The translations under genes and the position numbers were made by a program. The notes beneath the pieces were generated by a model. It did no database searches. It saw only the letters and a list, made by a program, of their open reading frames with translations, and was not told where the DNA came from. Source: Marsupella aquatica (Eukaryota; Plantae; Marchantiophyta). Taken from it: a stretch of 64,000 nt of DNA. The stretch lies in contig OZ316893.1 of NCBI GenBank assembly GCA_973895155.1, forward strand, positions 9,863,660 to 9,927,659, read 5' to 3'. Positions 13,055 through 44,630 of this stretch are shown here, piece after piece. The first letter of the stretch is position 1. Each line of letters opens with the position of its first letter.

Positions 13055-13680
13055 ATTGAAGATGTCAAGGTGAGAAAAAGATGTTGAGGTGAGTAAAAGA
13101 GGTCAAGGAGAGAAACAGATTTTGAGGTGAGGAAAAGATGTTGAGAAAAGAAACAAATGTCAAGTAAACAGAACGATGGCAAGGCAAGGCAAGGCAAAGA
13201 TATTGATTGAGGCGAGGAAAGATAAGGGAAAATATGTTTTGGTGAGAAAAATATGTTCTTGAAGCCAAAAATGGATGTCAAAGGAGGGCAAAGACATTGA
13301 GGCAAGAAAACATGTTGAGGCAAAAAAATGTCAAGACGCCAAAAGATGTTGAGGCAAGGCAAAGATGTCAAGGTGCATAAAGCAAGAAAATAATTATAGG
13401 CTTTGCACGGTAGATGTTGAGGCATGTTATGTGTCATTGCGGCCATATAGTTGATGCAACCATGTCAAGGCAAGGCAAAGATGTTGAGATGAGGCAAAGA
13501 TGTTGAGGCAAGGCAAAGATGACGAGGAAAGTTTAGATGTTGCAGAGAAGCAAAGATGTTGGGTTGAAGCAAAAATATTGAGTGGAGGCAAAGAAGTTAG
13601 TCATGCTGTGCACACACTCAATATTTTTGCTCAATATTGAGTAACAATGCACAGAAATGCAAACGAGGCAAGAAAGTTCA
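13055..13680. repeat. Degenerate ~19-20-bp satellite (AAGATGTTGAGGCAAGGCA-like)
   Basis: Many imperfect copies of GATGT(T/C)(G/A)AGGCAAGGCAAA. Confidence 0.8.
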
Positions 13681-16458: not shown

Positions 16459-18286
16459 AATGACCCCCTCTAGGCTTTTTGAGTTCAAGGTGTGGTCACA
16501 CAATGCTATTGGAGGGGAACATCTTAATTTTTCTCTCCCCGTGTTTCCTATTTCTTCACTCCCCTTGCCACTCCATTCCTCCCCACCTTTTCTTGACTTT
16601 GGCACCATTACATAAAAAAAGGCAAAATTAAACAAAAAGATGAAAAAATGAGGGAGTTATATGCAAAATGAACCGATTTTGCTTTCTTCTAAAGTCTCAT
16701 AATCATACTCTATGAAAAAATTTCAAAAGTTTTGTCATGCCCCAAAAGACTCTCATTCCAACATGTGTACTTTCTCCAGGAGTTTTGGATCTGGGTGTTC
16801 TTGACGGCTTTGGAAAGATCTTGGTGAGGCGGTGAAGATCGATATGAATTGCGCCCCAAATGGTCACCAATTAAGCGAGTTACGTCAGATTTAGGTTTCG
16901 CCGTTTTTTCACATTGGCTACGCGTTTGGCGATCTTGGCGTCTTCACGACTCGATTTGGGTCAACGTATGAGCGAGTCACATCGGCTTTAGGCCTTCGCT
17001 TTCTCCTCCAATTGGTTGTCGCCTTCGGGAGCTGTAGCCGCACGCTCAATCCAGAAGACGGATCTTCACTCGCGTCGACTCTCCAGCGGACAGCTCGACG
17101 GGCGCTTCAGCTTTGTTCCTTACTGTTCGTGCACCTGCTCAACGGTTTCCTAGGCTAGCGGTGACGCCATTTCTCGGCCTGATGTGGTGGGCTCTCTCCA
17201 TCGCCTCCCCTTTCTTTTCACCTACCTCGGTTGGGCCTTTTGTCACTTCTTGATGCGTTTTTGCTTCTATCGGATTGCGGCCTGTCATGTCTGCGTTGAG
17301 AGTGTTGGCGCGGGGCAAGCGCCCATCCCCACCCCACACTTCTCCCCCGTCCTCCCCTCCCCCTCGTGGCCGTCTTTGTGTTTGCTCTTCTTCACTGGAT
17401 CTCTCTCATCTTCGTGATGACCCCATGCCCGATGCTCTGCCAGTCCCCATCGTCGCCCTACACTAGTAGAAACCGGGGGGTATTTAGACCCCATTAAACG
17501 ACTATTCAGTACCGTATAGGACTTGGAAACGACTGGGAAGGACTCTAGTCCTTTATAGGACTGCGAGTCGTATGTTTTGTTACTATAATCAACTGAGTCC
17601 TTTATAGAACTGGTTTATAAGTCGTTTAATAGACTGGATTTTCAGTCTATTTTAGTCTTTGTGTGGGTAGCTTTGGTGAGTCATTTTCAGTCTTTTATGG
17701 GCTGCGATGATGAGTCGTTGGGAACGACTAAAAAGGTTATGGAGGGTAGTCTTTAAATATACTTTGTGGGGTATGTATAAGTCTTTCATGTCAACTGGAT
17801 ATGAGTGATGAAGACCCCACTATACTACTTGGAATGAACCCACTCTTGTGCACAAATAACATATTGCATTCATGTTTTATTGTGTACTTGGAATGAACTC
17901 ACTCTATAAATTCACCATTCATCATGTTAACATTAGAATACATAGTTTCAGAAAGCCATCTTCTATACCATGTACACTAATATGAATTCACAGATTCAAA
18001 TTTCATAGACTACAAAGAAGGTCACAAAGTATTCCTCTATACCATACACACTAATACTGAAATGATAAAATAGATTCAAGTATCATAGACAATCACCATA
18101 GAGCCATAGTTTGACATCAATCACTTGTTTCATACATACAGAATTCAGAAATATCAATGTCACACACAACGTCTCCTTCATCCTCTTTACCAAATGGAAA
18201 AATTGGTACAAATATTTCTTGGATCTTTCCAAGGCAATGTCAAAATGTGACACAATTCACATGATTCTATCTACACTTGCATTCAG

Positions 18287-21200
18287 TCACTGCAGACTAA
18301 CACACTCTAATGGCCAGAGCACAAGAGATCCTATTGCATCTGCAATTATTTCCTGAGGTGGATCATCGTCTCTATTCGGAAATGGCAAATTATAATCAGA
18401 TACAATCACTGTAGTCAACAACACTACTACATGGTCATCCGGGACCACTTTGCCATGGAATTTTGCATGATCCGGTCGCAAAATGCCTGTACCCACACAT
18501 ACCTGCGAGTCATCCTCCCATGATAGAAGATTATGGACTGGCTCTGCTGTGGCTATCACCTCCACCTTACCCTGGCTGTTTTTCTTGGCTTTCCTGGGTG
18601 GCTTATACATGACATTATTCATACCTTGGTTGTGAGTCATGACTTTGGCACGAGTGTTTTGTGCTGGTGATCGAGAATTGGCTACACTCTTCTTCAAAGA
18701 ATGTGCATCCATATTTGACACTTCTGATTGTGTAGCAGGATTTCCCTGCGACATCATCTCAGTACTTGCTTCAATTGAAGCATCTACAATCTTACTTGCA
18801 TCCAATGTTGCTCCCAAGTTTCAACGTCGCTTCACCCTACTCCCACTTGGTTGAGAGTCTGTCAACTCTGAATCAACTACAATTCAGTGTCATGTCCAGC
18901 ATAAGTCAATCACTCATCACATGTGCTAAATGTACATGTCACCAACCACAAAGTTGTCACTATCTCCTTACCATTATGAACAGCCTTCTTCCCCTTCTTT
19001 GCCATTGCCATATGCTCCATGTCTGCTTCTGTTGATCAATAAACACACCACAATATTCAGGTTGAATCTATTAACCACTGAATTGTTGCTCAACATTCAT
19101 ATAGAGGAATTTAAAGCATTAGCTTACCTGATACCTCCTTGGCTATGGTCACTGAGGCACTGGGCACATCTTCTTCATTATTGCTCTTTGAATCACCTGA
19201 TACATCAATCATGATGTCACTTCAGATCCCAGTTCATCCAACCAGTTCTTACAGAAAAGATTACCTCCAACCGGCTTAAGCTTCACAAAACTCCATGCAC
19301 TTTTCAAATGTAATGTACTGGATCATAGCAGGTTACCTGTCTCAGCAACCTTCTTGCCCTTCTGCTTACTGATTACAGGGTCCTTCTCTGCCTCCACTCT
19401 TCCTGCATTCAAACCATTCACTCAATTCATGAAAACTTACTTCTAACATTTGAACATAGGACACAATGAACAATGGGCCGGTGTCATTTCCATACCTGTG
19501 TCAGATTTGCCAATTCCCTTTTTTGTTAACAAGGGCACACTTTGTACAATGTTGCCCTCATTGTTTGGTTGGGAACCACCTAATTTTTCAATCACAAGCT
19601 TGAAATTAGATTCCACTGATGCAAGAAGGTTCACTACAGATGCCTCCACAATATCCAAACGATCAGCCAATTTACTTTCCACTCGAGGGAGTCCACACTC
19701 TAATGACTTCAACCGTTCACACATCTCTGTGAGAGTTGTAGCAGTTCCCTGTCATAACACAGCTTACATATCTCAGATAACTATCCCCAAGAACTGGTTG
19801 CTTACTTCCTACTACATTTCTTTCTGATGCTCAAGGCCAAATAGTCACAGAACATACAGAATTACAACATAATCACCTGTTTGGAAGTCACACTTGTCAC
19901 CTCACTCCTTTGTTTCATGAACTCCTCTCTCACTTCTTGTGCTGATGGTTCTTCACCTGTCAATTTCTTCTGCAGTCCACATCAACATACATATGAATGA
20001 AACCAAGTGTTGATTGTCAATGAAAATGTAATAATGGTAGCAAGATGATAAGTTTGAGGCTTACTATCAGGCATGTCACTGCCTTACCAATTGTTCTTTC
20101 ACTGGAGCATAACTTCCTCTCCCAGCCTGTGAAAGGTGTTTCACTTTGCCTCGAGCATTTGACATCAGTTCACTCTTGCTCTGTCCAGCCTCCGACATGA
20201 ACTCTTTGATTAACCGTGTCCATTGATCCAGTTCCAATGATGGGGGTGGTGGCATTCTCCTGTTAGAACCATTGTCTATCCACATCCTTTTCAACCTATG
20301 CCTCTCTTGTTTCAAAATCCTCATTGCATAATCTGATATGCAATCTTCAACTGGGCCCTTACCATCATTACCAACATAGTCCCACCGTTCAAGAATGTCC
20401 TTGCAGATAGCAGCCCAATCAGCTTTGTTCTGACTCCTAAACTCTGTAATGCTCAAATCTAACCAACGCAATACTTCTCCTCTTAGGTCAGAATGCCCAA
20501 CGGTTCTTACCATCACATGTGGGAGTTATCCAACCTTCGGAATTCACTTCTACTTTACCAAATTTGTTACTGTCTCCTGCCTTGGTACTCCCTGAAGTGC
20601 TACTAGGTGTCCCTCCACGGCCTGGTGTCCCCCCACGGCCTGGGGTCCCTCCACGGCCTGATCTCCCCCCACGGCCTGGATTGCATTGTCCAAACCTCCC
20701 TGGAGTCCCTGCACATTTACAGGATCCATTTACAGTCACTTACATTAGGTAAGTATGAATCATAAATCCTGCTGCCAAATATACACTGGACTTCAGAGCA
20801 ATTCTGCAATGACCAAGTTACCTCTCCCTTGGCGCATAGATGGTTCTGGACCACCTGTCCTATTGCTTTGTCTTGATGAATTAGGGCCATTTCTCCCGCC
20901 TGTGAATGATTGCCGCCTATCTGAATGTGGATGGCCTTTGTTGTTTTCGTGATTGTCCCAATCAGAGTCTGCATGCCAACAGGTACATGCCACACTCATG
21001 GACCTGTAAGATAAACTCTTTGCCCTAGCTACACATCAGATAAGTCCATATTGAGCTAAATCTCTACTACCATCACAAAATCACTAGCACAAGGCACTTA
21101 CTTGTCCAATCATCCTCCTCACCTTTCCATTGCCCTCTGTACCCGTCTCTACCACGCTCTGGGTGTTCATATTCATCCCATCCATCTTCTACTCCATCAT

Positions 21201-21444
21201 AGTCATCATCATAATTATCAGGCGTCCCTTGCCAATAACTCTGGCTCCTTCTAGGGTATGGATTATGTGATTTCTCTCTAGCTGCCCACCTACCTGGGAC
21301 TTGATGAGGGCCCTGTGCATCCTGCACAGGTGCATTTTTCTGTGAGCCCCCTGCATCTGGGTCTCCATCCATATCCAATCTTTCCTCTTCACCCCACTCT
21401 CCAAGCCCCATGTCTGTCTCCATGTCATCACCCTCTTCCCCCAT
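18287..21444 (-). CDS. CACTA TnpA-like protein (multi-exon)
   Basis: Acidic N-terminal exon, GRGGTP repeats (~20600-20680), Ptta/En/Spm Transposase_24-like exon 20076-20516 (QWTRLIKEF...KSELMSNARGK), coiled coil 19443-19724, and a C-terminal Tnp1-type domain (FHGKVVPDDHVVV...LPFP...IGSLVLWP). GT-AG sites lie between segments; the exact exon chain is not fully resolved. Confidence 0.75.
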
Positions 21445-21621
21445 AGCTTTTGCACAGCACCCACAACCAAACAGGGAGAATCAGCACACTAAATTCAAAG
21501 TATCAATCAATTTCATGCATATCCAACTATCCTAAACATCATTCCAGGCAGCAATTCCCGTTCTATGACTCTGTGCAGGTAGTCATCCTCAACCTCATAC
21601 TTGCCAATCGCCAGCTGTTGC

Positions 21622-24600
21622 CTATTGCAAATCATCAACCTCATCATATTCCATTTGCCCAGGTTCATCATATGTCTCTCTCAATGTTAAGGGAATGTAG
21701 TCAGTCCCTGCCCGAGTTGGAAGTACAGTCTCATGACTAGGATGCTCGAATGCAGCATGGTCATCCAAACTGAACTCTACTTTACTTCCATCCATCCGCC
21801 TGTTCCGTGCTTGGCTATGGCATACCACCCTCCAGCCATGTGACTCCTCCACATCTGCAAAGAAAGCCTGTTCAACTTGGCTAGGGAAAACAAAAGGCTC
21901 AGACCATTCTGGTACTCTGGACCTAAAATTGGCCAACAAGAACCCATCATGATCACGCTTCATGGTGGCCCTTGGTCTCTGCCACTCTGATTTCACCCAT
22001 GATCCCTTCATCAATATCACTGGGACACTTGTGTTACCATAATTCAACACCCAAATGTCGGTCAACTCCCCCACGTAACCCATCTTCATCCACCCCCTCT
22101 GTTCTTTAGAGGTTCTCTGCTCAAACACAGAAATCAAACCACAATCATATGATACACAATGGTCACCCTGCTCATCCCTCACTCGATAATGATTTCCATA
22201 AGCTCTCATCCGTTTGTAGGTCAGAATAGACAATCGTGGTGGCACAGATAGAAGATACAAATCCTTCTCCATATCTGGGTGATGTCTACTATGCTCTCGA
22301 ATTGTCACCCGAATCCACTGCTCGAACTATGGGAAGGGATCCTGCTGCCCAGAGTGTGCAGCTTTTTGCATATCATATTCCCTACAATATGAGGTACAGG
22401 GATAGTTAGGTCTAAACAACACATGACAACCTAAGATCACCCTTGGAACAGACAAGAAGCATCACAACAAAGGCAAGTCAATTCAATCACTCACCTCCAC
22501 CATGGTTGCATAGGCTCTGTGTTTGCCAGCACATATGAATGAGCCTTGTCTCGAATCGCAACAGGCAGCTGAACAACACGTCCCACACCTTCAACAACCT
22601 CGCCACTCACTCCATCATCTTCACCAGATTTCCAAACTCTTGTCATAGCTTCACCAGACCCAGCCATGTACTCTGTTAGGAATCCCAACGTCTCATCCTT
22701 AATGTACCCCAATGCCATGGAAGCCTCTGGCCTGTAGTATGTTCTCACATGACCTTTCAACAACTTCATGTATCGCTCCATAGGGTACATCCATCTGGTA
22801 CTGACTGGCCCATACTGCCCTAGCTCTTCTACCACATGGATTAGGAGATGAGTCATAACATCAAAGAAAGCAGGGGGAAGTATATCTCCAAGTCACAGAG
22901 GACATAAGCAGCATCCTGCTTCAACTGCTCCAATCCTTGGGGATCCCACACTTTCACACATATACGGCGAAATACATTGCACAGTCGAAGAATGACATTA
23001 CGGACTGGTTTCTGCATGAGACCTCTGAGGCATAGGGGCAGAATGTGCTGCATCAACACATGGTAGTCATGTGTTTTCATACTGCCAAGTTTATTCTTTG
23101 TAATATGCTTCTTGAAGGCACCAGCATAGCCAGAGGGCACTTTCAGACAGCTCAATCTATACAAGAATGTCTTCCATTCATCCTGTGTGCACACATAGGG
23201 AGCTTGGAACTTGAGAAGTACATTGGGATTGCTTGCATGGGGCTTCAACCAAAGGTGAGGGCGAATCCCCTTCTGTTGCATATCAGCTCGAACTGCTCCT
23301 GTATCTTTCTCACCCGACAAGAACTTCAGCAAGCTCTCACAAATATTTTTCTCAATGTGCATGACGTCCACATTGTGTTTGCTGGGCTCGAATTCTTGCA
23401 CTCCACAAAGCAAAGAATTCAACAATAGAAACACTAATTAACCACATAGGAGGATTGTAACCAACATCAATCCACCATTGCTCCAATCTAAAATTGCAAT
23501 CATACAGGGGCTGGAGGCTAAGTACATTACCCTCCAGTACTCCAACTCCAAGTCCATCAAGGTCTGTCTTTTCACACCGTGTTTCACCACTGGATCCTCA
23601 GGTTCTCGATCAGTGACACTTCTCTTGTCCCAATCAGCCTTCCTGGCTGCCCACCTCAGGACTTGCTCTCTGGTGACCCTCTGTGGTGGGCCACGAAGCT
23701 CTGTTTTGTTGTTGAAGTGTGCAATTTGAGACCGTGTGTGCCTATAAGGATGATCAACAGGCAGATACCTTCTATGCCCCTGAAATTTCATACTGTGCAG
23801 GGCATGCAACCACTCACTTGTCACATTTTTCCCACATGGTGTGCACCCCACATAGCCCTTTGTCACTCGTCCAGATATGATGCCATGGCCTGGGTAATCT
23901 GCTATATCCAGCAAACAAATTGCATGCAGTCTAAAGGGGCTGGGTCGAAGAAGCCCCTTCAGAACATCATGGGTTAACACCCCTTCTATCCACAAAGTCT
24001 TCCACTCTTCCACTGCTGGAGCCAACATGATATCTATGAATTGCTCGGTCACAGAAGCTGGTCCAGGGATTAACAACACCATCATGACAAAAAACCTCTT
24101 TGTAGTCATCCATGGGGGAAGGTTGTAATTTAGCAGCGTAACCGGCCAACATGAATAACGGTTGTTTTTGTCTCCAAATGGGTTTACTCCATCCAGTGAT
24201 AGACCAAATCGAAAGTTCCGCTTCTCTACAGCAAACTGTGGCCACCTCTCATCAACAAATTTCCAATGGTTGGAATCTCCAATGTGACGTTGCAGGCCAT
24301 CACTGCTCTTGTTATCAGGAGTCCATGTCATCAGCTTGGAAATGGCAGGGAATCTAAACAGACGTTGTAGTCTAGGAATGAGAGGAAAATGATGAAGAAC
24401 CTTGGCAGGGTGTGTACATTTCCCTACATTCTTGTACCTGTGCTTACCACAATGAGGGCATGTCAATTTATCTGCATGCTCTTTGCGAAAGAGAACACAC
24501 CCATCAGGGCATGCGTCAATAGACACATAGTTCAGCCCAAGGTTAGACATCAATTTCCTAGCCTCGTACATATTTTTTGGAATTGAATTACCATCTGGTA

Positions 24601-25321
24601 ACACATTTCGGCGCAGGAAGGTCAACAACTCTGTCACAAATATATTGGGAACATTGTGATTGCCATAGATGTTCAACAACAACACGACAAAACCCAGCTT
24701 GGAGCAGTTCGACCCCTCGTAGATAGGAATGCAAGCTTCTTTGATGTGTTTTGGGCCCCCAAACACCCACTCCCTCTCTGCTGCACCTTCCCCAATGTCA
24801 AAGTCAGGTTCAGCTTGGCCGTCGCCAATGTGTGGCTGCGGTTCATTGTCCTCTTCTGATTCCACTGTGTCGTAAAAAGCATCAAGGTCTTCAAAAATCT
24901 CTTGAACCATTCTTGGGACATCCATCCCACCGTCCTCAGTGACTGCCTCTGCATCTCCATCTTGGTCATCCACGTTCTCATGTTGGACCCCAGGACCATC
25001 CTCTGCACAGTCTATGTCCTGCTCTACGTAGTCTCTACGCCTAGCTGTATTAGAATCCACAAAGTCAGCTCTCCACTCTTCATCAGAGGAGTCTTCTTCT
25101 GCTGGTACATTCCAAACCCTCCACCGAGGGTGCCTTTCATGTCGCAGCAGGTGAAGGTGCATAGTGTTCAAACTCAACGACTTGAATCCTTGGCACTGTG
25201 TGCATGGGCATCTCATCCTCCTACTCCTACCTTGGGCGGCCCGGGCTTGTTCACGCATCCACAATTTAGAATCATGATGCCTAATCCTAAATGGGTTGTG
25301 AAGAGGCAACCTTGGAGCCAT
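21622..25321 (-). CDS. CACTA TnpD transposase (Transpos_assoc, Transposase_21, DUF4218, DUF4216), spliced, with one apparent frameshift
   Basis: Motifs MRCPCTQC, IDACPDGCVLF, FPLIPRLQRLF, LSLDGVNPF, YNLPPW, DYPG, DVMHIEKNICE, MKTHDYHVLMQ, MTHLLIH, RWMYPMERYMK, EPFVFPSQVEQAFF. A 1-bp deficit in the G5 run at ~22873-22877 shifts YFPPAFFDVMTHL out of frame. Confidence 0.95.
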
Positions 25322-25647
25322 CACTATACACACGCACTCAGCACCCTGTCATTTTATTATGCAAGTGAAAAATACACTTCCTGTTAAGGATTTCACCCCC
25401 GACTGTACTTGCCAAAATACATAACGTTCCAAAAAAACTAAAAAACAAAAAATATAGGTGCCTGAGTCATGTACCTATTCTCAAGTGAATGAGACAAAAT
25501 TCCTAAATGTTTGAGGGTGTCAACTCCTCCGCTGTCCTCACATGTACTGCCTCTGCACGTACATCCATGACCATATCAGAGTCCAATCATGTATAGTCAT
25601 AGACACAGGTGCCAGGTGCGAGACCGGTGTGAGATGTCCTCATCTTA

Positions 25648-26178
25648 CTACCACATCAAATACGGATACCAATCCTGTTGTCGATGCCACTCAGCCCTGA
25701 GGTACTCAGGCATGTACATTAAGTCATCAAGGTCTAAACCCTGCTCATGCCATGGTGGTCTTCGATCCGTGCCTACAAGCAGTGGCAGCAGTGCCCTCCA
25801 TGGTGCACATGTTGCTACCAAGTCCCTCCACTGGGTACTAATTAGTCTATATTTGCAGATATCTTGTGCGCCAGACACCACAAGAACCCTCGGCCAGACA
25901 TGTGTAAGAACTATATCATCTGCCAAATCAGGCAACAAGGAACCACCTACAGCATCGTGCTTGTCTAACTCATCTGCTGAAAAGTAAATGTCCTCTTCCG
26001 ACTGTGCATCCTCATTCACCACAGCATTCACAACACATCCAAGGTCTGCAGGCATTATCTCGGATGGAGCTACACTCTGTCTGGTTACCAATCCACACAA
26101 GTAAGCCCAAGCAGTAGCCATGCACGATGCAACCCGTAGGAGGACCCTACATAGGGCCTGACGGTCTGGAAGAGGCAG
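25648..26178 (-). CDS. F-box-like protein (CACTA cargo)
   Basis: GSLLPDLADDIVLTHVWPRV...ICKYRLISTQWRDLV fits the F-box pattern LP.LP.DI...I..R....R.VS..W..L. No recognisable substrate-binding domain. Start codon uncertain. Confidence 0.65.
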   Translation of the reverse strand: MPLPDRQALCRVLLRVASCMATAWAYLCGLVTRQSVAPSEIMPADLGCVVNAVVNEDAQSEEDIYFSADELDKHDAVGGSLLPDLADDIVLTHVWPRVLVVSGAQDICKYRLISTQWRDLVATCAPWRALLPLLVGTDRRPPWHEQGLDLDDLMYMPEYLRAEWHRQQDWYPYLMW

Positions 26179-26414
26179 CATCCCCACCAAAGTCTTCAGC
26201 CAAACAGAGCCCAGCAAGTAGATTCACAGTCACACCCCACGCAGCAGGAAACAACAATCACTTCAACTGCGACCAACCATGACAAGATGAGTTAGTTCAA
26301 GGATCACATTTATTACAAAATTGTGTTTTATACAAAAATATGAGGGACTCCTACTCCTCACTCTCTCCCACCTTTGCTAAGCATACATCTCCGCTGAATC
26401 TTGGAGGGCCAGGC

Positions 26415-27206
26415 CTAAAAAATATCAAAGTCCCAAGCATTCTGTCGCTTCCCTCTAGCTGCTGATTCCAGAAGCCAATCAGGGGAAAGCACCCAAAGAT
26501 TGTTGTTCATGACAAAATCACGCACTGTTGTCTTAAAGAATTTTCTGCATATTTTCATGTATGACAGACCTACAACATGAGTGGAGGTTTCTGTTAGACT
26601 CTCCTCCACTGTCCCACCTAGCTCAACAACTATAGACTTGTATAGTCTGCACTTAGTCTCCCCAATTCCTTCTTCTGCAAATACCACACTGAACCCCTTC
26701 ATAATGGTATTTCTCTCCTTGCCATGCTCATTCAATATAGCATCTGCACGCATAGGATGGTGTCCTATGTTGACAACAGGTCCATATTGGACAGAAGCAA
26801 AGTTGGGTTTCTCTGCCGCTGCTTCATAGGCTTCCTTTTCAGCCAAAGCCTCTGCAGTGGCCTCCTCACTCTCCCACAACTCATATTGCTCAGTACTCTG
26901 TACACACCTATGTTTAACAGAATCGGTCAGCCAAGAGACTTCAACTACTTTTAGACCTTGGTTGGTAATGGCAGAATCAATGAAGGACAATGACCACTTG
27001 TTCATCACATCCAGCCATGTCCCCGCAACAACATGTGTAGTCTGTGGAGTGATGTCCTTGACTTCAGTCCCATGGAACTCTGAGAATCGTTTTTGTACGA
27101 TTGGCCAACTCACTTGGGTGAACCCATAGTGGCCAGGAATCAAAATGGCTTTGATTCCAGCCAACAGAGGCGGGTGGTCAACCTTTGTACGTTTCCTAGA
27201 GGCCAT
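26415..27206 (-). CDS. Tandem BRCT-domain protein, DNA polymerase lambda-like BRCT (CACTA cargo)
   Basis: Two BRCT repeats: G....ITPQTTHVV...VVEVSWLTDSV...YEL and MKGFSVVF...LGGTVEESLTETSTHVV...VLSPDWLLESA...DF. N-terminal basic NLS-like SRKRTK. Intronless and open. Confidence 0.88.
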   Translation of the reverse strand: MASRKRTKVDHPPLLAGIKAILIPGHYGFTQVSWPIVQKRFSEFHGTEVKDITPQTTHVVAGTWLDVMNKWSLSFIDSAITNQGLKVVEVSWLTDSVKHRCVQSTEQYELWESEEATAEALAEKEAYEAAAEKPNFASVQYGPVVNIGHHPMRADAILNEHGKERNTIMKGFSVVFAEEGIGETKCRLYKSIVVELGGTVEESLTETSTHVVGLSYMKICRKFFKTTVRDFVMNNNLWVLSPDWLLESAARGKRQNAWDFDIF

Positions 27207-27882
27207 GTACACACGGGCCACCTAATCACTGCAGACTGGAAGATAATGCGTTCACCTGATAATCGGAGGGCCCTTAAAATGCTGCGTTTATAACTTGGTC
27301 CAGTCCAGTCGTCTGGTGAGTCTCTGCTCCGATTCCAAACGGGAGAAATATTGGGACAAACGTACTAGACACCTGCAAGCATGCACCTCATAGTTTGAAT
27401 ATGTGCCTTCACAATATTGAAGGTGACAAGTGCAATTGTTTTGTGATGCCACATACAGATGTTGTAAATGGGCAGACATTCAATGAGAATACAAAATGTT
27501 GGTACACTTTAAGGGAATTCTCACAAATTAAATAGCCTTGTAACTTATATGCTCATAATGAGAAGTCCTGATTTAATTTAAGCAGTGTCATGTAAGTCGT
27601 GATCAAAATGATTGCAGAGTTAAAAAAGTTCCTAGAAGGCTTAAGGGCAGTTTTTGAAGGCATGTACCCAGGAACAAGTAATGAACTTAGGGTACTTGTT
27701 GCCTAAGCATCCTCTCCTACAGAGGTCCTTCTTCTCAAAATTGGAATGTCTGCAATCTCCAAGGTATCCACATCAGGTGCACTATGCATGTATATTATTC
27801 AGGTTCAAAGCCAAGAAATGTGATCTCTCATGGGAGTGTGCAAAGTAGGATCTATGGCATGGCGATGACAATAGAAGATCCA

Positions 27883-28485
27883 TCAATCAACACCATGTGC
27901 AGAGTGATCATAGATGTGTCTGTCACAAGCATAGCCTTCTGCTTGACGCTCCTTCAAACAATGAAAGTGCCACATGGTGGGACACCTAACATAGTGGACT
28001 ATGTCCACCCAGAAATCTTCATCGTGCTGACCACATGCCTTGCACTTATGAAGTGGGCAAGCTGTGGCAAGATCGGGCAAACATGAAAAACAAAAGAACC
28101 TCACACAATATCTGTCAGGGCATTTCCTAACAAGTGGTGGAGCATCAACAGAGCCCTCATAAGACCCCAACTTCCCACACTGTGCACACTTAGCCTGCTT
28201 CTCCAAACAATCAGTGCACATCCAGCCTCCCTGGTGTGTTGACGGGAGGCCCACCCCTGGACAGTTGTTTTCTGCAGCAAGGTCAGACTCCGGGTTGAGG
28301 TGGAAATGCCTCATGCAAGGGCCCTCACATATGGCTAAGCCACCACCATCGTCACAAATGGCACAACAATGAGCTGCCTTCTGGAAAATCTGACTTGCGG
28401 AGAAGTTACTACCATCTGGCCCAACTACACCTGTGTTGCTCACCTCTGTCCCCCGCTTCTTGGCTCGGATTTTAGGGCGTGCCAT
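27883..28485 (-). CDS. EDM2/NSD-type multi-PHD finger protein (CACTA cargo)
   Basis: CAICDDGG.L..CEG.C.R.FH...C...W.C.DC......C..CGKLGS...C....C..FF...C...CPLHKC..C...RCP..WH..CL follows the EDM2 PHD module. N-terminal NLS-like RPKIRAKKR. No other EDM2 domains. Confidence 0.85.
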   Translation of the reverse strand: MARPKIRAKKRGTEVSNTGVVGPDGSNFSASQIFQKAAHCCAICDDGGGLAICEGPCMRHFHLNPESDLAAENNCPGVGLPSTHQGGWMCTDCLEKQAKCAQCGKLGSYEGSVDAPPLVRKCPDRYCVRFFCFSCLPDLATACPLHKCKACGQHDEDFWVDIVHYVRCPTMWHFHCLKERQAEGYACDRHIYDHSAHGVD

Positions 28486-29154
28486 GCCTACGCATGAGAC
28501 AGATAGTACAATTTAGCAGAGTGCACGGACAATACAATTTAGTGCAGTGTACAAAAAGTACAGTGTAGCATATAGACTAGAGTGGCAATTGCTACTGCAA
28601 TGAAATGTTCACACACATGTGCAGAGTAGACATACTTTTTGGTTTGTTGAGCCCACACTAAAAACTGATCCCCTTGTACAATAGCTCCACCTACACCTCA
28701 ATTTTGTGGCTATGATTCACCAAAGGAGATCTGCAACAAGATTTAATGCATTTGAATCACATATAACAGTCGTGACATGTAAAACAGGCATTTTTTGAAC
28801 AGGATTGGTATCAAGCACTGTGATCAGGGTTGTAATTTATACATCCTACATAGGCTATGATAGTGAATGAGATAAATAAGTTAGGCATAAATCACTTTTT
28901 CCAGGTTATCACATGGCCCATTAATTCCAGTCTTTGAAAGGAGACTTTTAAGTGAGCGTGCTAGCCTCTTAAATTAGGATATTGTACTTAGTGCAGCCAT
29001 AATAGGATAAGTTATGTACTGTTGACCCTAAACCCTGGACCCAAAATTGGTCATAATTCAAAATCTTAAGTAAATATCCTCTCTGTTCAAGTCAAAGTGT
29101 TAAGTTATAGGTCAATGGTCTCTGGTTTGTGCATGCGGTGTGACAAGTGGTCCT

Positions 29155-29604
29155 CTAGAGCGTGTGATCCAAACATGTGTAGACACCAAAGTGACCGGTG
29201 GTGGGGTCTGGGAGGGCAGGACAAGTGACATCGCCAGGCACACTATAGGATGGCGAGTGGTTCCAGATGATACATTGTGCTCTGTGAAAAAACCGACATC
29301 CAAGAGAACGGTCATCCAACTCTAGGCCAGAAGCCCTACAGGCAGGACAGTCATATTGGCAACTGTGCACACACCCTTGGGCCCTAATTTGTGGCGGGTC
29401 ATGTACAAGAGACAGAAATACCAAGGATGTTGGGAAGGGTGGAGAAGCAGGTACAGGCCGGCTGTAGTTGTTCCTGGCAACAACTGGGTACTCAAAGTAC
29501 CATGCAAACTGGGCTGGAAGGATCCCAAGTCTGACATACTCAAGGCGCAACATCTCTGCCTTGCGTGCAAGCCGCACATGTTCAGCGTTGCGGGTCCTCA
29601 CCAT
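29155..29604 (-). CDS. Small hypothetical Cys/His-rich protein (possible CACTA cargo)
   Basis: ATG-initiated, co-oriented with the other cargo ORFs. Basic N-terminus (MVRTR) and a CVHSCQYDCPAC cluster. No family recognised. Confidence 0.35.
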   Translation of the reverse strand: MVRTRNAEHVRLARKAEMLRLEYVRLGILPAQFAWYFEYPVVARNNYSRPVPASPPFPTSLVFLSLVHDPPQIRAQGCVHSCQYDCPACRASGLELDDRSLGCRFFHRAQCIIWNHSPSYSVPGDVTCPALPDPTTGHFGVYTCLDHTL

Positions 29605-31242
29605 AAGTGTTGCTTTTGTGGAGATGTCGTGTGTTCACGTCCTCTGATAAGCACCTTCGATCAGCAAGGTGAGCAGGAGCTGTATTTGCCTCACCAACGG
29701 CAACCAACCTTAAATTATCAGTTCCCACTCACTGTGTCATTCCATTGGTTCCAGCTAGGGGTCACAGTGTAAACATAGCATGAAACACTCCTAATCAACT
29801 TGCTTACAAACTACAATATCCAGAAAGAGTGAAAGTCTCACCCTCCGGTGAGCAGCAGAGAGGTAGTTCACTAGATGTGTTGATGTACAGTTAAACCTCC
29901 ACTATTGCTTACTTCTGGTGTATGCTGCTCAGAAGAAGACATATTAGTAGCAGCAAATTGCAAATAATGGCCATAAGCAAACCGTGAGAGTTTGCAGAAT
30001 GCTACGACAAATCCATCACAGCAGTGCTCCACAGGAATGAAACCAAGCAAAATTTGGTGACCTCGGCCAATGACAAGGCCAATGTAGTGAACAATCCTTG
30101 ACTGATCAGGATATGGATTGGAATTACAATTAGTCAGCTCTTCTTCTTTGTTTTCTAACTCTGGGGGAAATGAGCATGACCAGGGAATTCTCTGAGAAAT
30201 AGAAGTGCACAGGGAAAATGAAATTGGCTCATTCAGCTGCGCAAGACCGACCATTGCAGCATACTTGGACAGTTGTTCCGCAATACACTAGTACGACAGG
30301 AACTCAAGGAAACATTTGTGGCAATGTCTTTGTGGTGCGTCCCATGGCTCCCTAAACCCAAAAAACCCCCCAGCTCAAGCCGATTCCCGCAGGTTTCGTG
30401 CTTGGCGAGGCCGTTTCCGCGGCTTAGCGGCATGGGACGCTGCTAACCTTCTACTACTACTATTAACATTTTACACACATATACTGGACAGATCCTTCAT
30501 CGGGTCATGAGATACGTAGCCGGCCTAATATAGGCCTTCCCCTGTCTTCCCCTGTCTTCTTGTTAGGTATGTTTGGATTCCGCCGCCAGAATGATCCCCA
30601 ATAGGCTTGGTTAAGCCGCTAAGACCTCTCTCAGCTCGACACATCCAACTCTCACTCCCCTGCTTACTTTCCTTCCTTCTGTTGATGTGGGCACTCTTCA
30701 CACAAGTTAATGCGACACACAAATAGCAAAATGACTCATTCTGACTGAGTCATACCATGCACTTGCCATACAAACAGTACATCTCATACACAAGTTCTGC
30801 GAACTAAGCCGTGAGGCCAACTCTATTCAGCTCTTAGGCATGAGGAAACATGAATATACACAAGGGTCACTGTATGACTAACCGAGAGCTTCTCGTACTA
30901 CTTGATCCCAGCCCGGCTGGTGCAAACTAAAAACTTGCTAAAGAAGAGGCCCTGAGCTCCCCGCTGCCCAGGTACTTATCCTGGTAGTGGATCCGCCATT
31001 CTTTGCATCGTAAGCCTAATCTACTTAACAGTAATCTACTTGCCCGAATCTACCTATGTACAGCAAGGCAGGAGCACAAGTGTTGCTCCTACCAGTGGGA
31101 CCGCAATCCCACTAAGCTAAGTGTCAGGGCCGCTCCTGGTTCTGATCCTAATCCTAAACATGGAGATCCGCGCCCGCCCTGCCCACTCACGCCTCCTCCC
31201 TCCACGTCCGCCCTCCCTAAAAGGAACGGCGCCCTTGCACCG

Positions 31243-34200
31243 TCACGACACCGGTGGTGGATCCTCAATGGACGCCCCCAACACTTCCTCCTCAGCCACT
31301 GCCGTTGGCCCGCCTACTGACAGATTACCTGCCCTTGACCGAGTCAACTCTCCATCGGCCTGACTGGGTCCACCTTCGGCTTCAGCCTCGACACCGGCCT
31401 CGGCAATACCCACGGCTTCGGCCTCAGCCACTCCCACGGCTTCGGCCTCCCGTTCCCCTAGGGTAGTTGGATCCTTAGCCGTGACCCTGTCTGGGGTCGG
31501 TGCTGGGTCTACCTCCTTGATCACCACGGCCTGTGAAGTCGTATTACTCCTTGACCCTGGAGGTTTCCGCTTCTTCTTCGTTGGTGGCTCGGCAGCTGGT
31601 CCCTTCCCCTTCCCACTTACTTCCGGCACTGGTGCAGTTGACGCGGCTTGTCCTTCGGCAATTACCACCCCTGGTAACTGGTTTGTCCCAACGGGAGATG
31701 GACCTGCTGCAGCTAAGCATTTAAATACTGCGGCTTGTTTCTTCAGCCGCTCTGTTTGGTTGTCGGCCCGCCGCTGTAGGTTCTCCATCTTCCTCGTGAT
31801 TTTCTCCAACTCCTCTTGGGTTTCATCCAGGTCCTTACGTGCCCCCTCCAGCTCGTTTTTGGCCTCCTCCTGCTCCCTGTGGGCTTCCTCCAATTCCTTC
31901 TTCAAGGTAGCCCTCTCCTCCTGGGTTGCTCTTAGCTCCTTGTCGAGCTCTGCAATGATGACAGACTCCATCTGGTTCATCTTGGCGTAAGTCTGTTCGA
32001 GCATCTCGTCCTTCTCCCTTAGGTCGGCCTTGAAGCTGGCCGTCAGGGACGCAAGCTCCTGCTGCAGCGCCATAATCCCTTGATAGGATTTCCCTAACTC
32101 GACCTCCTTCTGCTCAAGGGCTCCGCGGATTTTCTCGAGCTCCCCTTTCAACGCCCATTCCTTTCTTTGGGTCTCCGCCATGGCCCGGTTGTTGGCTGTT
32201 ATGTGGGCCTCCTCTGTATTCTTCAGCTCTTGCTTCCACTTCTCCCTCTCTTTGATCGTGTCGGCCAACTCTTCCTGCGTCTGAGTCAGTTTATCCTTGA
32301 TATTCTGATTATCAGCCTGCGCGGCGTCCAACTGCCCCTGCATGATGTTCAGCTCATGTCGTTTAATCCGCAGTTCATCTTGGGCTTTCTTGGCCGCCCT
32401 TAGATTTTCAATCTCGGCTTCCATCCTCCTAAGCCGCCGAATGACCTCGTCCTTCTTGCTTCTCTCTAAAGCCACCGCTTCTTCTAATTGGTGCTTCTCC
32501 AACTGCTCCCTATGGAAAAAGGGTCCTACCTCCAACTCCTCTCCAAAGATGCCGAGCGCAAGTTCCCCACACATCTCACCATACTCCATGGCTCTATTCT
32601 TAGCGTAGGTGGAGTAAGTAGAAGTGATCGGCATCGCCCATCGTGGCCTCTGCTCCCAAGCCGTCCTGCGGATCTCTTCAATCGTGGCTAGAGGTTTGCT
32701 TCCTTTTTCGGCTAGCCGCCTGATGTCCTCCGGCCAATCTCCTCCTGGTAAATCCTTTTCCTTAGCCAGGGCGGCCTCTTCCTCCTGCTTGATTCGCTCC
32801 TGAAATTCCTGCACCGTCTGTTTTATGCCGTCGAAGCTCGGGGGAGCAACATCTGGTGGGGGAGACTCAGGGCTACTCTGCTGGTTGGGGTCCCCTCGCA
32901 CTACCCTTGGAAGTGTGGGGACAAACCGGCCACAGGTCCTTACTCCTGGAACGTGATGGTCCGACCCATAGCCGGAATTATCATGGCTGCAGTCCTCCAC
33001 TGCCTCCTCTACCTCTTGGACGTCCGGCTTCTCCCTCTCCTCTTCGTCGGTAGGAGCTTCAGGCAATTCTGCCTCAGATTCGGAGCTTGAGGTTCCCACG
33101 TACATTCGAACACCTGGCTTGGATTCCGGCCTGATTCTCTCCTTGTCTCCAGCAAAGGGGTTTTCTCTTGTGAGCCGGTGTAGGCCTACCTCTGTAGTAG
33201 TGTCCTGCATTGTTGCCGTTGCCGTTGTTGTTGCCGATGCCGATTTCTTTTCTTTCTCCAGTAGTTTCAGCAGACTCTGCATGCCTGGTTGCTGCATCGG
33301 CAAGTCTTCCTTCCTGGGCCTAAACACCTGCTCGATCGTAGGACTAACAGGTGGTTGAGGCTTTTCAGCCAACGGCCTCGGCGTTGGAGCTTCCTCGGGT
33401 GCCCTTACCTGCAGGGGAAGTACCGGGGCAAAAGTCTGACTTCTGGCATACCGGCACAACAGCGGCATGTGATAGCCAAGCCGCGACACGCTCCCCATGC
33501 CGATTACCTGCTGCTCCTCCTTTAAGATCTTCTTCAATTGGTTGAGGAGGTACCCGTTGTAGTCCCGGCTTGGGTCTGGCCTTTCTGCCAGATAGACCTG
33601 TGCCTTGCCGATCTCTGCCCTCGGTAAGTTACAATGCATGGTCACCCGCAAGAAGTCGATCATCTCTCCTATGTGCGGGTTGGTGCAGGTGTTCCGGAAG
33701 AAGCCATTCTTCGTTGATGGCCCGGGGAACGACCGGAACTCCTTGTCAGGCAAGGTCTTCCTGGTATCAACTTTGGTCTTATTGCCCATCGGCAAGCCAA
33801 ACACTTCGGCAATCACCTTGGGAGTAAGATAGAAATCCTTCCCATATATCCTCGTGCAATTGGTCTCGGGTTCCCATGACCCCACGAATTCTAATAGGTC
33901 TGACTCCGGTACCTCCGGCTTCAGCCATGGTAATCTTACAAAGGCCTCCAAGCCGGATCCGGCCATGAAGCCTTGGTACTTCTTGGTCTGCATGGCCGTA
34001 AAGCATGCATCCTCCTCCCGTGCAAAATGTAGTTGCACCTCCACCGGTAGGGTTGCCGCCCAGCCCTTCTAGGTGTCATCCCTGGTTGGAATGGCCTTGA
34101 TGGGATCGACCTCCTCCTCTTCGGCTTCTCCCTGCCTCCTGCTCTGCTGCTCGGCTGGCTTCTTTGGTGCCGCCGACCTCGTTCTTTTTGCCGGGGTGGC

Positions 34201-34842
34201 TTCATCGTTGACGGCTCCCTTCCTCTTCATCTCTGCTGCCGTGGAGGTTTCTCCTAGCACCGTTGCCTGGGTCCACCTTTCCGTGCTACCCTTTAATTCC
34301 CAGTGTATGTCGTTGCAGTTCTTGATGGCCTCTCGGATGCCGACGACGCTGTCTTTGCAAAACAGAAGATCGTCGAGTTGATTGGAAGTAGGCGTCCACA
34401 GGAACTCGTCCTTGATGAGTTCGCCTCCTAAGAAAGCCGTCTTCTGCAGCTCCCACAATCGAGCGAGCTCCTGCCGTTCTCGAGCTGCCCTTTCTGACTC
34501 CTCGTCCTCGTAAGTCTTGATGTACTCAGTTGCCCGTTCGAACAGGCATCCCCAGAAATGTGCCGCTTGATTGACGTTGCTCATACCCTCCTTAGGTCGA
34601 TCGTCGGTATCTACTCTCTCCCCGAGTGCTTGCCTAAGCAGCTGACAGTAGTTGGCCTCCCGTAGTCGTCTGCCTAGTTCGTGCTCGCAAATGAGCCACC
34701 ATCTCCTGCAAGCGCTCCTTACCCCTCTCCTCTGCCGGTCCTTCTTCCCGTTGATCCTTCCTAGCCGCCGACGCTTAACGCGCCCTAACCCTAATCGGGT
34801 TTTCACCCTCAACCTTACCTCCGGCCTCTGCCCGGGTTCCAT
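31243..34842 (-). pseudogene. ~1200-codon TE-type ORF (plant-transposon-protein-like domain plus long coiled coil) with one in-frame stop
   Basis: ORFs 34069-34881 and 31243-34044 are in the same frame, separated by a single TAG and 8 codons. LLEF...IYGKDFYLTPKVIAEVFGLP resembles gypsy accessory ORF domains, and a heptad-rich E/K/Q region follows. Visibly more GC-rich than its flanks. Confidence 0.7.
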
Positions 34843-35619
34843 GGTTGCCCCTAATTGTTTATATTTTCCTTGTTTTGTCACTATACTAAGGTGTTCCTAG
34901 GGTGCCTTCCTGCTTTACCCACTTAACCGGCCGAGTGATTCCTGTCTAGGCATCACAGTCTTCACAGGAAAAGAAGAATCGCTAAGTACAGTATTGTTAA
35001 TAGTAGTTTCGTTCTAATTCTGAAATCTACACATAGGATGGAAACCCAGGACATTTCTCATGAAAATTGAAGATCCATTCAACAACTCCATGATAGCCTA
35101 TTCCGCATTGTGTCCGTCCCATGCAAGCGAGGGGTGTTCAGCCGAGCTTAGTCTAACCACGAATGATTGTTCTGGAAGCAATTGCGACAATGTTTTGGTA
35201 ATTTTCTCCTACCCAACTCAATAGCTCACAAACATGGCATTGGACCCATTAACAAATTATACTTGCCATCATTCTCAACTGTATTACATGGCCCACACTA
35301 CTGATGTCCCTGACTCTTAAGGGAAACTCATCTCCTGGGCCAGCAACATCTCAGATTCTACAAAAATGAGAAACTATGAAGACTTATTGAAGTCATATCC
35401 TGTGATTGTAGCATGTATGATTCACTGGGACTGCAAGCAGTTCTAGATCCTGCTGCACTTTATATACAGCAGCAACCTGAGCTCCATGAACTTGTTTTTA
35501 ATAGACGTGCGTTTGACCACGGCTACAACTCCAAAACAATCAGTCATCCAATCAAATCATAACGAAACCCACCCGCAAGCTGAATGTAGAGGATAGAGAC
35601 AGAGAAAATCACCGGGGCA

Positions 35620-35860
35620 GTGAAGTCGGATCACAGGGTGCGAAACTAGTACTCAACAGGGTAAGACCGATCACAGCATACAAAGCACGGAGCTAGACCA
35701 CCAAAACTCCAGCAAGACAGTGTCGTGTCCATTTATTTGTAGGGAATGAAGTCGGATCACAGAGTGTAAAACTAGTACTCAGTAGGGTAAGACAGATCAC
35801 AACAAACGAAGCTAACACAACAAAGCACATAGAGGAGCAAAACTCCAGCAAGACATAAAT
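35620..35860. repeat. ~126-bp direct duplication inside the CACTA
   Basis: TGAAGTCGGATCACAG...AAACTAGTACTCA..AGGGTAAGAC.GATCACA at ~35621 and ~35747. Confidence 0.8.
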
Positions 35861-38664
35861 CAGACCTCGCAGCCTTTTGACTAGCAAAGGGAGATAGTCT
35901 ACGCTTTCCATTGCTGGTCACAGCGCGACGGGCAATCAGGATGATGCCATGCCGAGTAGAAGAACAACAAAGCATTCTATAAAAAGCACTGAGGTTGGCG
36001 TTATAGTAAAAGTGGTAGTACTTCTAGTAGCGCGACCAACTCGCTAAGTGACAGTCCGGAGTAGCTTACCTTCGAGAAGAAAGCCATAGCAGTTTAGCAG
36101 AAATCCCCAACAAAATCCCCACTCTGAAGATGGTAAGCTTGCAGCTGCTCCCCCGAGTGCTCCCCTCAACCTCGCCACTTCTATTCTGAGCAGCGCAGGT
36201 CCTCTCCACCCTCTCACCTTGCACCTCCTGAACAGGTGACCAGCACTATCCACTCCCACCGCAACTGTGGACGGTCCCTAAAAAAATGCAGATGACAGCG
36301 ACCAATAGACAAAGGATTACATGCGTAGACCTGGCAGAAATCTTCAGTGCAATGCATGACTAAGCTGACCAGTATTTCTCAATAGGGTACCAAAAGCCAC
36401 AAACAATACAAAAGGCAGTGACAAGCACAGGCGGTGGCAACTAGCAAAGGCAGTGGCAAGCAAGCAATCAATGATGATAGCGGCAATCGGCAATGGCGAT
36501 GGAAGGCAGCAATAGGAATCACCTGAATGAAGTACCAATCCGCAGCGGGAGGGAATGTCAACCTTCTTGTCAATTGCAGACCACCTCCGACCTCAAGGTC
36601 TCCCTCACGTCAACACCTAAAATGTAAGTGATGACCCAATGTATCCTCCCTGATCGCAGCTCGTCCCCGCCCGCAGCTCGTCCCCACCCGCAGCTTCTCC
36701 CTGCATTGAGGTCCTCCTCGACCATAGCTCTTGCAGCTGCTAGGCCCAGCCTTTGATGGCCTTCTGTAATGTTTGCAGACAATGTCGCCTCCCTTCAAGC
36801 AACTTGCCTTCCGTAGCAGTAGAAATCACCTATGCTCGAGCAACTTGAATGAAGTCACAACAATGGGAGCAGGCGGCGACGGGACTGTCAGCTCTCAAGC
36901 GCAACCTTCACAGCTCACTAACATTGCAGGACTGTAAAAAATGACCGGTTCACGTTGTTACCGTAGCATCCCTGGCACACCAAATCCTTTGTCTCTAATT
37001 CCACCAACCAAGCGCTCGATGGTTGACAATGCGCAGCTGAGCTAGGAGAAGAACTGAATGATTGTGGCTGCTCTTCTCTGCAATCCAAGCACCCGGCTGG
37101 CAGCTCCGCAAACCCTGATCGTAGCTGCAATCTCTACTCCGTTGATTGAAGAGCCTCCCTCTTCAAAGCTTGGTTGACCTAGCTCTACAATTGACGGAGC
37201 TTGTCATCCTCTGCATCAAAAACCCTCCACCACCCGACCTTCCGCGTACTTCAGGAAGCTCCTTACCACCAAGCGCTTCTCAGGGATGCCTCGCAACAAT
37301 GTCCTTACCACCTAACGACTCTCAAGGCTCTCCCAAACCAATGCAAACCCCTTGCAATCTAATACACTGTGTCCAAACAGAGGCAGAACTGTCAAAAGCG
37401 CTCGCAGTAGTGGACGCAGCAATGTGAAGTGAATGAGCTCCGACCTTCCCTCGCAAAATGCTTACCCTAAACTCTGCTCGTATGCTAAACTCACAAACAT
37501 TCCGCAGGTCGTTCTGTCGCAAAGCACAAATGATGGGGCCCAAACGCATGGGGCGCGGACACTCGATACTTCCCTTCACAAAAACCCAGTTTCATACGAT
37601 GACCAAAGCATACTCACCCTAACCCAAGACTTAGTGCAAACAGGACCCTAAACGCTAATCCAGGGCCCGTTTCCGTTGAGTTGAGCCGTTAGGCTTGATA
37701 AGTCATGGCCAGAGTCTTGATGTAGGGGAACAATGTGGACTTAATTAGGCAACAAATGAGTACATTTGGGTGAGGGTAAAGGATAACTTTAAATAAATCC
37801 CTTTGGCGACAAAGATGAGGCCACTTAATCAGTTGTGCCCCACCCTAACCCCCCCCCCCCCCCTCCGGGGCCCCCTCATGGAATTACCTCTATCAAAAGT
37901 ACCCTAAGTTATGAAAAGTACCCGTTACATGGACCTGTTTTGAGAGTTGAAAGATAATCAGAAGTAAAGGGACCATGGAGAAGAGGGGGCCAATGTAATT
38001 AAGTCAAGCATCACTCATTCAAAATCCACATGGACATAGTTGGGTACTATATGAGACACCAGGGGACAAGACATTTTTGAAGGGTTGGCATATTTACCCT
38101 CATCCCTAAACTTGGATGTTGTGCACATAACATCCACTCTCCTACCCCAAGTACAAAACAACTCCTAACAACTTAGGCCCAATGTAGTCACTTGTGCCCA
38201 ACCATGTTCATTAAGAGCCTAAATGTTTTCATTTCACCCACATTGCATGTTGTTGGGGGTTCCATGGTCTGTTATTATAATGTAACTCCTCATGTGAACT
38301 TTGTGAAATTTAGTATTTAAGGGACCATGGAGAAAGTAGGCCAATGGAGTAATTGGAACCATGAACCTTTTTGGTCACAAATAAGGCCATCTAATGAGTT
38401 ATGCCCCTTGCTATCACCATCTTTATAGAATTAACCCTCTTCAACATAAGTGATCATTACCCATGTAGTGCTAGACTATTCACCGTTCACAAAGTAGCAA
38501 GGACCCTTCTCATAGTCATTTAGAGAACCATATAACACTAATAGTCTTTTGTAGTTTTCAACAAAACCGGCACAATGAGAGCGAGTCGTTTCAAGTATGG
38601 AAAAAGGACTTAGTGGGCTTAGTCCTATAAGGTATGGTCTAAATGGCCCCGGTTTCTACTAGTG

Positions 38665-44083: not shown

Positions 44084-44630
44084 ATGCACCTCACTTGAAT
44101 GGCCTTTTGATTTTAACAGAGACGGATCTCTCTTGTCTGCCCTTTCTTCTTTTCAGTGTCCTCTCTTACGAAGGGTACCATGCACCTGAACTAAAGAGAA
44201 AATCAATTGAATGACTTTTTGACTTTAACAGAGTGACTGATCTCTCTTCTCTGCCCCGTTTTTTCATTTCTTAATGCCCTCTTTACGAAGTGTACTATGC
44301 ACCTGAACTAAAGAGAAAATCAATTGAATGCCTTTTTGATTTTAACTGAGACTGATCTCTCTTGCCCCTTTTTTTCATTTCTTAATGCCCTCTTTTACGA
44401 AGTGTACTGTGCACCTGAACTAAAGAGAAAATCAATTGAATGACTTTTGATTTTAACGGACACTGACCTCTCTATTCTGCCCCTTTTTTTTTACTTAATG
44501 TATCCTTATAAGGAGTATACCATGCACATGAACCAAAAATAAAATCACTTGAATGACCTTTTGATTTTAACAGAGACTGATCTCTCTTGTCTGCTCTTTC
44601 TTTCTTTTAATGTCCTCTATACAAAGTGTA
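44084..44630. repeat. ~112-117-bp tandem repeat, about 4.5 copies
   Basis: TGCACCTGAACTAAAGAGAAAATCAATTGAATG..TTTTGA.TTTAAC units start at about 44181, 44298, 44410 and 44523, with a partial unit from 44084. Confidence 0.92.

Follow-up and report, generated by a model that had tools for sequence, protein, structure and literature searches.

A multi-copy CACTA transposon of Marsupella aquatica with a cassette of PHD, BRCT, F-box-like and Cys/His genes

The element and its transposase genes

A stretch of 64,000 nucleotides from the liverwort Marsupella aquatica (assembly GCA_973895155.1, contig OZ316893.1, positions 9,863,660 to 9,927,659), here referred to as the window, contains a CACTA/EnSpm transposon that carries four intronless genes besides those for transposition. 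Terminal inverted repeats (TIRs) of 18 bp, subterminal repeats, TnpD and TnpA were all recognised. All genes lie on the minus strand, beginning with the Cys/His open reading frame (ORF) and followed by PHD, BRCT, F-box-like, TnpD and TnpA, so that the four cassette ORFs are arranged head to tail upstream of TnpD/TnpA. A preliminary description of the locus had reported compact, intronless, open and co-oriented ORFs within a 21-kb CACTA element bounded by perfect TIRs. The common orientation, the position and the lack of introns were confirmed, but the PHD and BRCT frames carry premature stops. The two TIRs, at 17461-17478 (plus strand, beginning with CACTA, at the 3' end of the genes) and 38647-38664 (minus strand, at the 5' end), are indeed identical at 18 of 18 bases. 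The length had to be corrected to 16,572 bp, because 4.6 kb belong to a nested insertion. Short repeats on both strands, enriched in GACT/AGTC, adjoin the left TIR (17479-17760), with 17 such cores in 300 bp compared with about 2 expected from the window average, and by analogy with En/Spm they are likely to be TnpA sites. No Rfam family was found within the element.

The spliced TnpD transposase gene (21622-25321) encodes the domains Transpos_assoc, Transposase_21 (E=1.4e-60), DUF4218 (E=7e-17) and DUF4216. The TnpA-like gene (18287-21444) has several exons with approximate limits, and its match to Pfam Transposase_24 at 20076-20513 stays below the cut-off (E=0.0055). An 18-bp tandem repeat in the TnpA region (20606-20677) encodes RGG/TPG-like repeats.

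Contigs of four runs (X1, X2, X3 and X5) were mapped on positions 18800-38799, five runs with small shares being left out; single variants were read from 40 of the 1,624 variant rows, and single pieces from 32 of some 70,800. Each run contributed thousands of contigs at 80-100% identity, with up to dozens over one site (for example 19 distinct contigs in X3 at 26643). Relative to contigs in all four runs, TnpD lacks one base at 22872, which shifts its frame; contigs with the extra base account for nearly all of the depth in X1 and for a minority of the summed depth in X2, X3 and X5. The stop base of the BRCT frame at 26417 likewise differs in contigs of all four runs, and the BRCT homolog P0001 extends beyond it. 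An in-frame stop at 27883-27885 cuts the PHD frame short by 26 codons; of the 25 residues beyond this stop, 24 match the PHD homolog P0002. The present copy is a damaged member of a multi-copy CACTA family.

The element interrupts a non-long-terminal-repeat (non-LTR) retrotransposon, a long interspersed nuclear element (LINE), which occupies 38665-41124 on the plus strand (RVT_1, E=2.8e-9 at 39726-40712) and continues to the left of 17461. The flanks of the CACTA element, CTA on the left and CTG on the right, form a 3-bp target-site duplication (TSD) with one mismatch (two of three bases matching). In run X2, the sequence at a loose end at position 38665 is similar to the left flank and represents the empty site of the insertion into the LINE; it is compatible with a 3-bp duplication.

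The nested insertion on the minus strand (30331-34957, or 30326-34962 with its duplications) is 4,627 bp long, begins with TG and ends with CA, is flanked on both sides by the 5-bp TSD GTCTT and lies outside the CACTA element proper. Its empty site is present in three of the four runs (X1, X2 and X3), where contigs join 30325 to 34958, and across runs the insertion is covered at 2-22 times the depth of the TnpD/TnpA core. The insertion resembles a solo LTR in that no internal LTR pair was found, yet it is 4.6 kb long and coding; judged by these features it may be a long LTR with coding content, or else a retroelement that has suffered deletions. Its ORFs, of 257 amino acids (aa) and 916 aa, the latter a coiled coil, match no Pfam family above cut-off. 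They were considered as CACTA cargo and rejected because both are located within the nested insertion. The adjoining 5' region (34963-38100) has no ATG-started ORF of at least 80 aa and is found in a minority of related sequences. Its depth at 35.5-38.1 kb is 0.03-0.10 of that of the core, i.e. 10-35 times lower, and its observed/expected CpG ratio, 0.57, is above that of the core; it may be a recent, copy-specific capture.

The four cassette genes

The PHD gene (27805-28485) is a compact EDM2/NSD-type triple-PHD gene of 226 codons, of which the ORF 28485-27883 is open in this copy. Three NSD-type PHD models of Pfam match it with E=2.6e-4 to 5.7e-3, below the curated cut-offs. Among 61 candidates, three homologs of near full length were found, with 79, 74 and 36% identity. 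A profile search returned 365 proteins at E<=0.001, 150 of which were listed. The best six of these matches are stand-alone proteins of 166-245 aa, and most of the others listed are long EDM2-like proteins, several of which (25 scanned) combine DNMT1-RFD with PHD, the architecture of EDM2. In a 28-row IQ-TREE tree of hand-picked sequences, the window protein and eight compact proteins stand on one side of a branch with 100/100 support and with long internal branches. A FastTree tree of 67 rows, made up of 66 of 138 eligible proteins and the window, gave the compact clade a support of 97. The sequences thus place the PHD gene in a deep, well-supported clade of apparently EDM2-derived stand-alone proteins. 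A position of this clade as sister to liverwort paralogs is weak (86 in FastTree, open in IQ-TREE) and is not claimed. The other short PHD matches are placed among host-type proteins and probably represent fragments or paralogs of the host. An NCBI/UniRef record exists for none of the seven compact PHD clusters checked, compared with six of six long EDM2-like clusters. The best-scoring long relatives looked up came from liverworts and a fern, and the long paralogs with database records are from Marchantia, Riccia, Calypogeia and Ceratopteris.

The compact proteins contain neither the RFD nor the C-terminal part, and their second finger is shortened. They also differ from the long proteins in the eight residues before the first zinc ligand, where none of the 13 compact proteins that have the motif (out of 15 examined) contains an Asp or Glu, whereas all 88 long proteins that have it (out of 99 examined) contain 1-4. 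In AIRE-type fingers an acidic residue at that position anchors unmodified lysine 4 of histone H3, and AIRE turns up as a sequence match to the PHD protein. The AlphaFold model of the homolog P0002 has a predicted local distance difference test (pLDDT) of 86, and its best fold matches are PZP modules and the PHD modules of NSD proteins; TM-scores over the whole chain are low. On the basis of model and alignment the PHD protein is a folded, selected, EDM2-related module with a probably changed specificity. Pfam, the profile search and the structure matches all point to the NSD/EDM2-type PHD cluster, in accordance with the EDM2-like identity proposed earlier. EDM2 and its land-plant paralogs have this same cluster (PMC7529245). 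The protein described here consists of about 226 aa and PHD fingers only, as against roughly 700-1600 aa in the long EDM2-like proteins.

The two-BRCT protein (26415-27206), stopped early at 263 aa in this copy, matches Pfam BRCT in two stretches (E=3.7e-13), as expected from its earlier designation as a tandem BRCT protein. One homolog was found among 575 candidates, P0001, with 61% identity and 294 aa. The two BRCT halves are 23% identical, which does not demonstrate an internal duplication. The structure model had a pLDDT of 33 and was not used. An assignment of the domains to the DNA polymerase X type was supported by nothing more than a match to TdT (E=0.06-0.2).

The F-box-like ORF (25648-26181) encodes 177 aa. 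Atlas recognition (2429) assigned it to F-box clusters with values of 0.86-0.91, in line with the earlier label, whereas the Pfam F-box match is weak and below the cut-off (E=0.08-0.1; 13 bits against 20.5), and a PDB match was not obtained. Its identity as an F-box protein is therefore weakly indicated by its sequence. The Cys/His ORF (29155-29604) encodes a protein of 149 aa for which two homologs were found among 19 candidates, with 54 and 53% identity over 97% of the length. It had no match in Pfam, Atlas or PDB, and for this reason its reading as a PHD or ePHD finger was rejected. The basic N-terminal patches noted previously are present on cassette ORFs. The claim that each ORF keeps only an interaction domain is not established for the Cys/His ORF, because it matches no known family.

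Coverage, constraint and origin of the cassette

The question of whether the four genes belong to the family or to this copy was addressed by coverage. Parts of 25400-29800 occur in 10 of the 12 runs listed, with at least half of the words in four and 0.43 in one; these runs carry six different coded organism labels, and one has no label. In X1, X2, X3 and X5 the ratio of median bin depth between cassette and core was 1.97, 1.18, 0.77 and 0.92, with single bins ranging from 0.42 to 2.57. The cassette is thus covered like the transposase in all four runs and is not confined to this copy; in this respect it goes with the core, and the part that varies is the 5' region. In X1, depth over the PHD and Cys/His genes (27471-30138) is about twice that over TnpD, which hints at further elements or derivatives with both genes. 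The observed/expected CpG ratios are 0.25-0.42 in the four cassette ORFs and 0.24-0.33 in TnpD/TnpA, compared with 0.61 in the LINE and 0.70 in the nested insertion. The depletion of the four ORFs is consistent with a long joint residence with TnpD/TnpA in methylated DNA.

Constraint was measured at the protein level between the window and the homologs. For every homolog pair, 300 simulations of neutral divergence were run, starting from the window ORF and ending at the identity found for that pair. Frames remained open in 39, 19 and 0 of the 300 simulations for PHD (homologs of 79, 74 and 36% identity), in 1 for BRCT, and in 9 and 15 for Cys/His. The PHD homologs retain 23/23, 23/23 and 20/23 Cys/Trp residues, which was equalled in 0 of 300 simulations each. 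The BRCT replacements are more conservative than in all 300 simulations, and Cys/His retains 9 of 10 Cys/Trp residues (p=0.026). Protein-level constraint therefore appears strong on PHD and BRCT, but less so on Cys/His. As had been proposed, the cassette ORFs are probably selected accessory genes, because the cassette is covered like the transposase and three of its four ORFs have full-length homologs and show constraint. The explanation to which we lean, with slightly better than even confidence, is that of a multi-copy CACTA element moved by TnpD/TnpA, whose four upstream genes are selected accessory genes, predicted to supply adaptors or decoys that engage chromatin, repair and ubiquitin factors of the host.

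Several observations weigh against this explanation. Three disabling changes, the TnpD frameshift and the PHD and BRCT stops, are present in this copy. Summed contig depth is not copy number, and a cassette ORF and TnpD were not joined on any of the 32 pieces listed, the closest being an X1 piece from 24714 to 25599. Cys/Trp retention in BRCT is non-significant (p=0.13), and the Cys/His replacements are neutral-like, with 29 and 185 of 300 simulations reaching the observed value. Called-gene databases bias the homolog sets towards open frames, and the ligand and replacement tests therefore outweigh the stop counts. Five of five contig scans for the genomic context of the homologs gave no relatives (PHD in metagenome, viral and prokaryote contigs, TnpD in metagenome and viral contigs). 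The acidic residues before the first Cys are gone in 13 of 13 compact PHD proteins, which argues against a plain histone-reader role and makes ordinary reading of the H3 tail doubtful as far as the alignment tells. Finally, the search for a BRCT donor gave LIG4 (E=0.005), BRCA1 (0.03) and TdT (0.06-0.2); the best match, LIG4, is weak and not collinear, and is no more than a candidate donor.

Pack-CACTA elements are non-autonomous and carry near-identical host fragments. The main contigs of X1 are about 99% identical to the window, indicating a young burst, and two of the four ORFs of this copy contain stops, so that the cassette could be neutral cargo of this type, gene fragments that hitch-hike and possibly provide camouflage by small interfering RNAs (siRNAs). 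In Pack elements, CACTA ends likewise enclose host-derived sequence, the cargo mostly pseudogenises and such camouflage has been proposed (PMC13317346). Here, in contrast, homologs at 36-79% identity retain frame, start, end and zinc ligands, neither introns nor mixed exon fragments were seen, TnpD and TnpA are present, and the PHD gene belongs by sequence to an old separate clade. This gene is about 30% identical to host EDM2-type domains and therefore too distant for shared siRNAs. An origin as neutral cargo is accordingly regarded as very improbable.

Small intronless genes are frequently overlooked by annotation. This, the unseen context of the homologs and the fact that constraint was measured between window and homologs rather than among element copies would suit unannotated, host-selected genes that a CACTA element captured whole and then amplified passively. 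Such an origin is nevertheless improbable. Database records are lacking for the seven compact clusters checked, though the long paralogs have them, and the compact members P0011, P0015 and P0033 lose the family sequence part-way, like decaying copies. Moreover, four unrelated, co-oriented, intronless genes with TnpD-like CpG depletion are hard to derive from one recent capture. We thus return to accessory genes of the element itself and consider it likely that the constraint acts at the level of the transposon.

Possible functions and relation to known systems

The preliminary description proposed host manipulation by evading silencing, recruiting end-joining factors or degrading defence proteins, and the cassette proteins may be suited to this. 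That they act on host machinery to the benefit of the element has, in our view, a chance just short of even. In such a scheme TnpD with TnpA would mobilise the element, as expected from En/Spm biology (PMC13547354), and the cassette proteins would act in trans as adaptors or decoys. The PHD protein might bind heterochromatin of the element itself, or partners of the EDM2 type, by a mode that departs from the canonical one. It would either ensure that transcription of the long CpG-depleted unit reaches TnpD/TnpA or act in competition with host readers. EDM2 itself binds H3K9me2 chromatin, suppresses proximal polyadenylation at introns containing transposable elements (TEs) and lets genes be transcribed across such heterochromatic introns (PMC7529245). 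The BRCT protein could hold end-joining factors at the DNA ends of excision and insertion, the F-box-like protein could occupy or redirect SKP1, and the Cys/His protein would be a putative zinc-binding partner. A specific role of the cassette in read-through or anti-silencing is regarded as tentative and as less likely than not.

The same evidence of selection also applies if the accessory genes serve the transposition reaction only, the PHD protein steering target choice and the BRCT protein speeding end repair, with no anti-silencing. The loss of acidic residues, which suggests an altered binding specificity, the LIG4 match, though weak, and the insertion of the element in another transposon would all fit. 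Furthermore, TnpA is reported to activate and demethylate Spm (PMC10398659), and a second anti-silencing system may therefore be superfluous. On the other hand, F-box and EDM2-derived modules would point to regulation rather than catalysis, the reported role of EDM2 is full-length transcription across H3K9me2-marked TE sequence (PMC7529245), and a single insertion site reveals no target bias. A function restricted to transposition is considered unlikely, and adaptors or decoys for host factors are still preferred.

The maize En/Spm and Arabidopsis EN/SPM families share with the present element the TIRs, the subterminal repeats and the head-to-tail order of TnpD then TnpA, but the available text describes only TnpD and TnpA (PMC13547354; bioRxiv 10.64898/2026.08.24.746577); PHD, BRCT and F-box are not mentioned in the text of PMC13547354. 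A parallel in architecture comes from giant Plavaka elements of the red alga Bostrychia (PAG1-3), which belong to the same superfamily, are 17.4-19.1 kb long compared with 16.6 kb here, and also have a fixed multi-gene accessory cassette, with most copies degenerate (bioRxiv 10.1101/2025.02.11.637652). PAG2 and PAG3 encode enzyme domains (DNA methylase, SET, 2-oxoglutarate (2OG) oxygenase; same source), whereas the recognisable modules here (PHD, BRCT, F-box) are non-catalytic. None of the 18 ORFs scanned gave a Pfam match to the methylase or SET of PAG2 or the 2OG oxygenase of PAG3, and the core is a plant TnpD and TnpA pair, unlike that of Plavaka. In grapevine and rice, CACTA-ULP1 also carries a host-derived domain family-wide, one protease domain as opposed to four stand-alone genes here (PMC2528002). 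Fungal EnSpm, Plavaka and ESTA elements with TET/JBP are of the CACTA group as well and have acquired an epigenetic gene that is proposed to work against silencing, but this is a single enzyme in fungi, and PHD, BRCT and F-box are not mentioned in the accessible part of the report (PMC12730594).

VANDAL elements resemble the present one as autonomous plant DNA transposons with extra conserved genes, and a Ulp1 domain of host origin is present in some VANC genes (PMC10398659, PMC13317346). They differ in belonging to the Mutator superfamily and in having VANC proteins that bind DNA motifs in non-coding tandem repeats, with demethylation proven (same sources). No Pfam match to VANC or Ulp1 is listed for the ORFs of the element described here, whose transposase is of the CACTA type. 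Proven anti-silencing proteins encoded by plant transposons are very few, namely VANC, TnpA and MURA (PMC10398659), and 20 additional domains are stably maintained in Helitron-like elements (PMC11417382). No report of a CACTA element with a PHD/BRCT/F-box cassette was found in the literature; Repbase and most subscription journals were outside the search, so that an entry may exist. The family described here is a plant CACTA of the TnpD/TnpA kind with four cassette genes, whose modules are mostly non-catalytic; three of the genes have conserved homologs.

Even without anti-silencing, the cassette extends a Plavaka-like multi-gene architecture to plant TnpD/TnpA elements. The four small intronless candidates allow a direct test of whether plant DNA transposons use host-derived reader or adaptor modules. 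The compact PHD clade appears to be a natural EDM2 variant in which the likely histone-binding surface is altered throughout the family, and the Cys/His gene adds an undescribed protein family. A more far-reaching and rather doubtful possibility is that an old land-plant, probably bryophyte, CACTA lineage built a four-gene counter-defence kit from a rewired EDM2-derived PHD decoy, a BRCT repair adaptor, an F-box protein and a new zinc-binding family, which would provide anti-silencing through protein interactions independently of VANC. If true, this kit would be comparable to the set of accessory genes found in large DNA viruses.

Elsewhere in the window, a Harbinger-like element at 7787-12650 has inverted arms at 7787-7837 and 12600-12650, a DDE_Tnp_4 ORF on the plus strand (8606-9673) and a Myb/SANT ORF on the minus strand (10579-11613). 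Exons of a host UDPGP-family gene lie on the minus strand at 48726-50979. Tandem arrays were found at 13049-13594 (19-bp period) and 44091-44673 (period of about 113 bp). Broken reverse transcriptase frames on the minus strand at 59340-61197 have motifs that we take to be L1-like.

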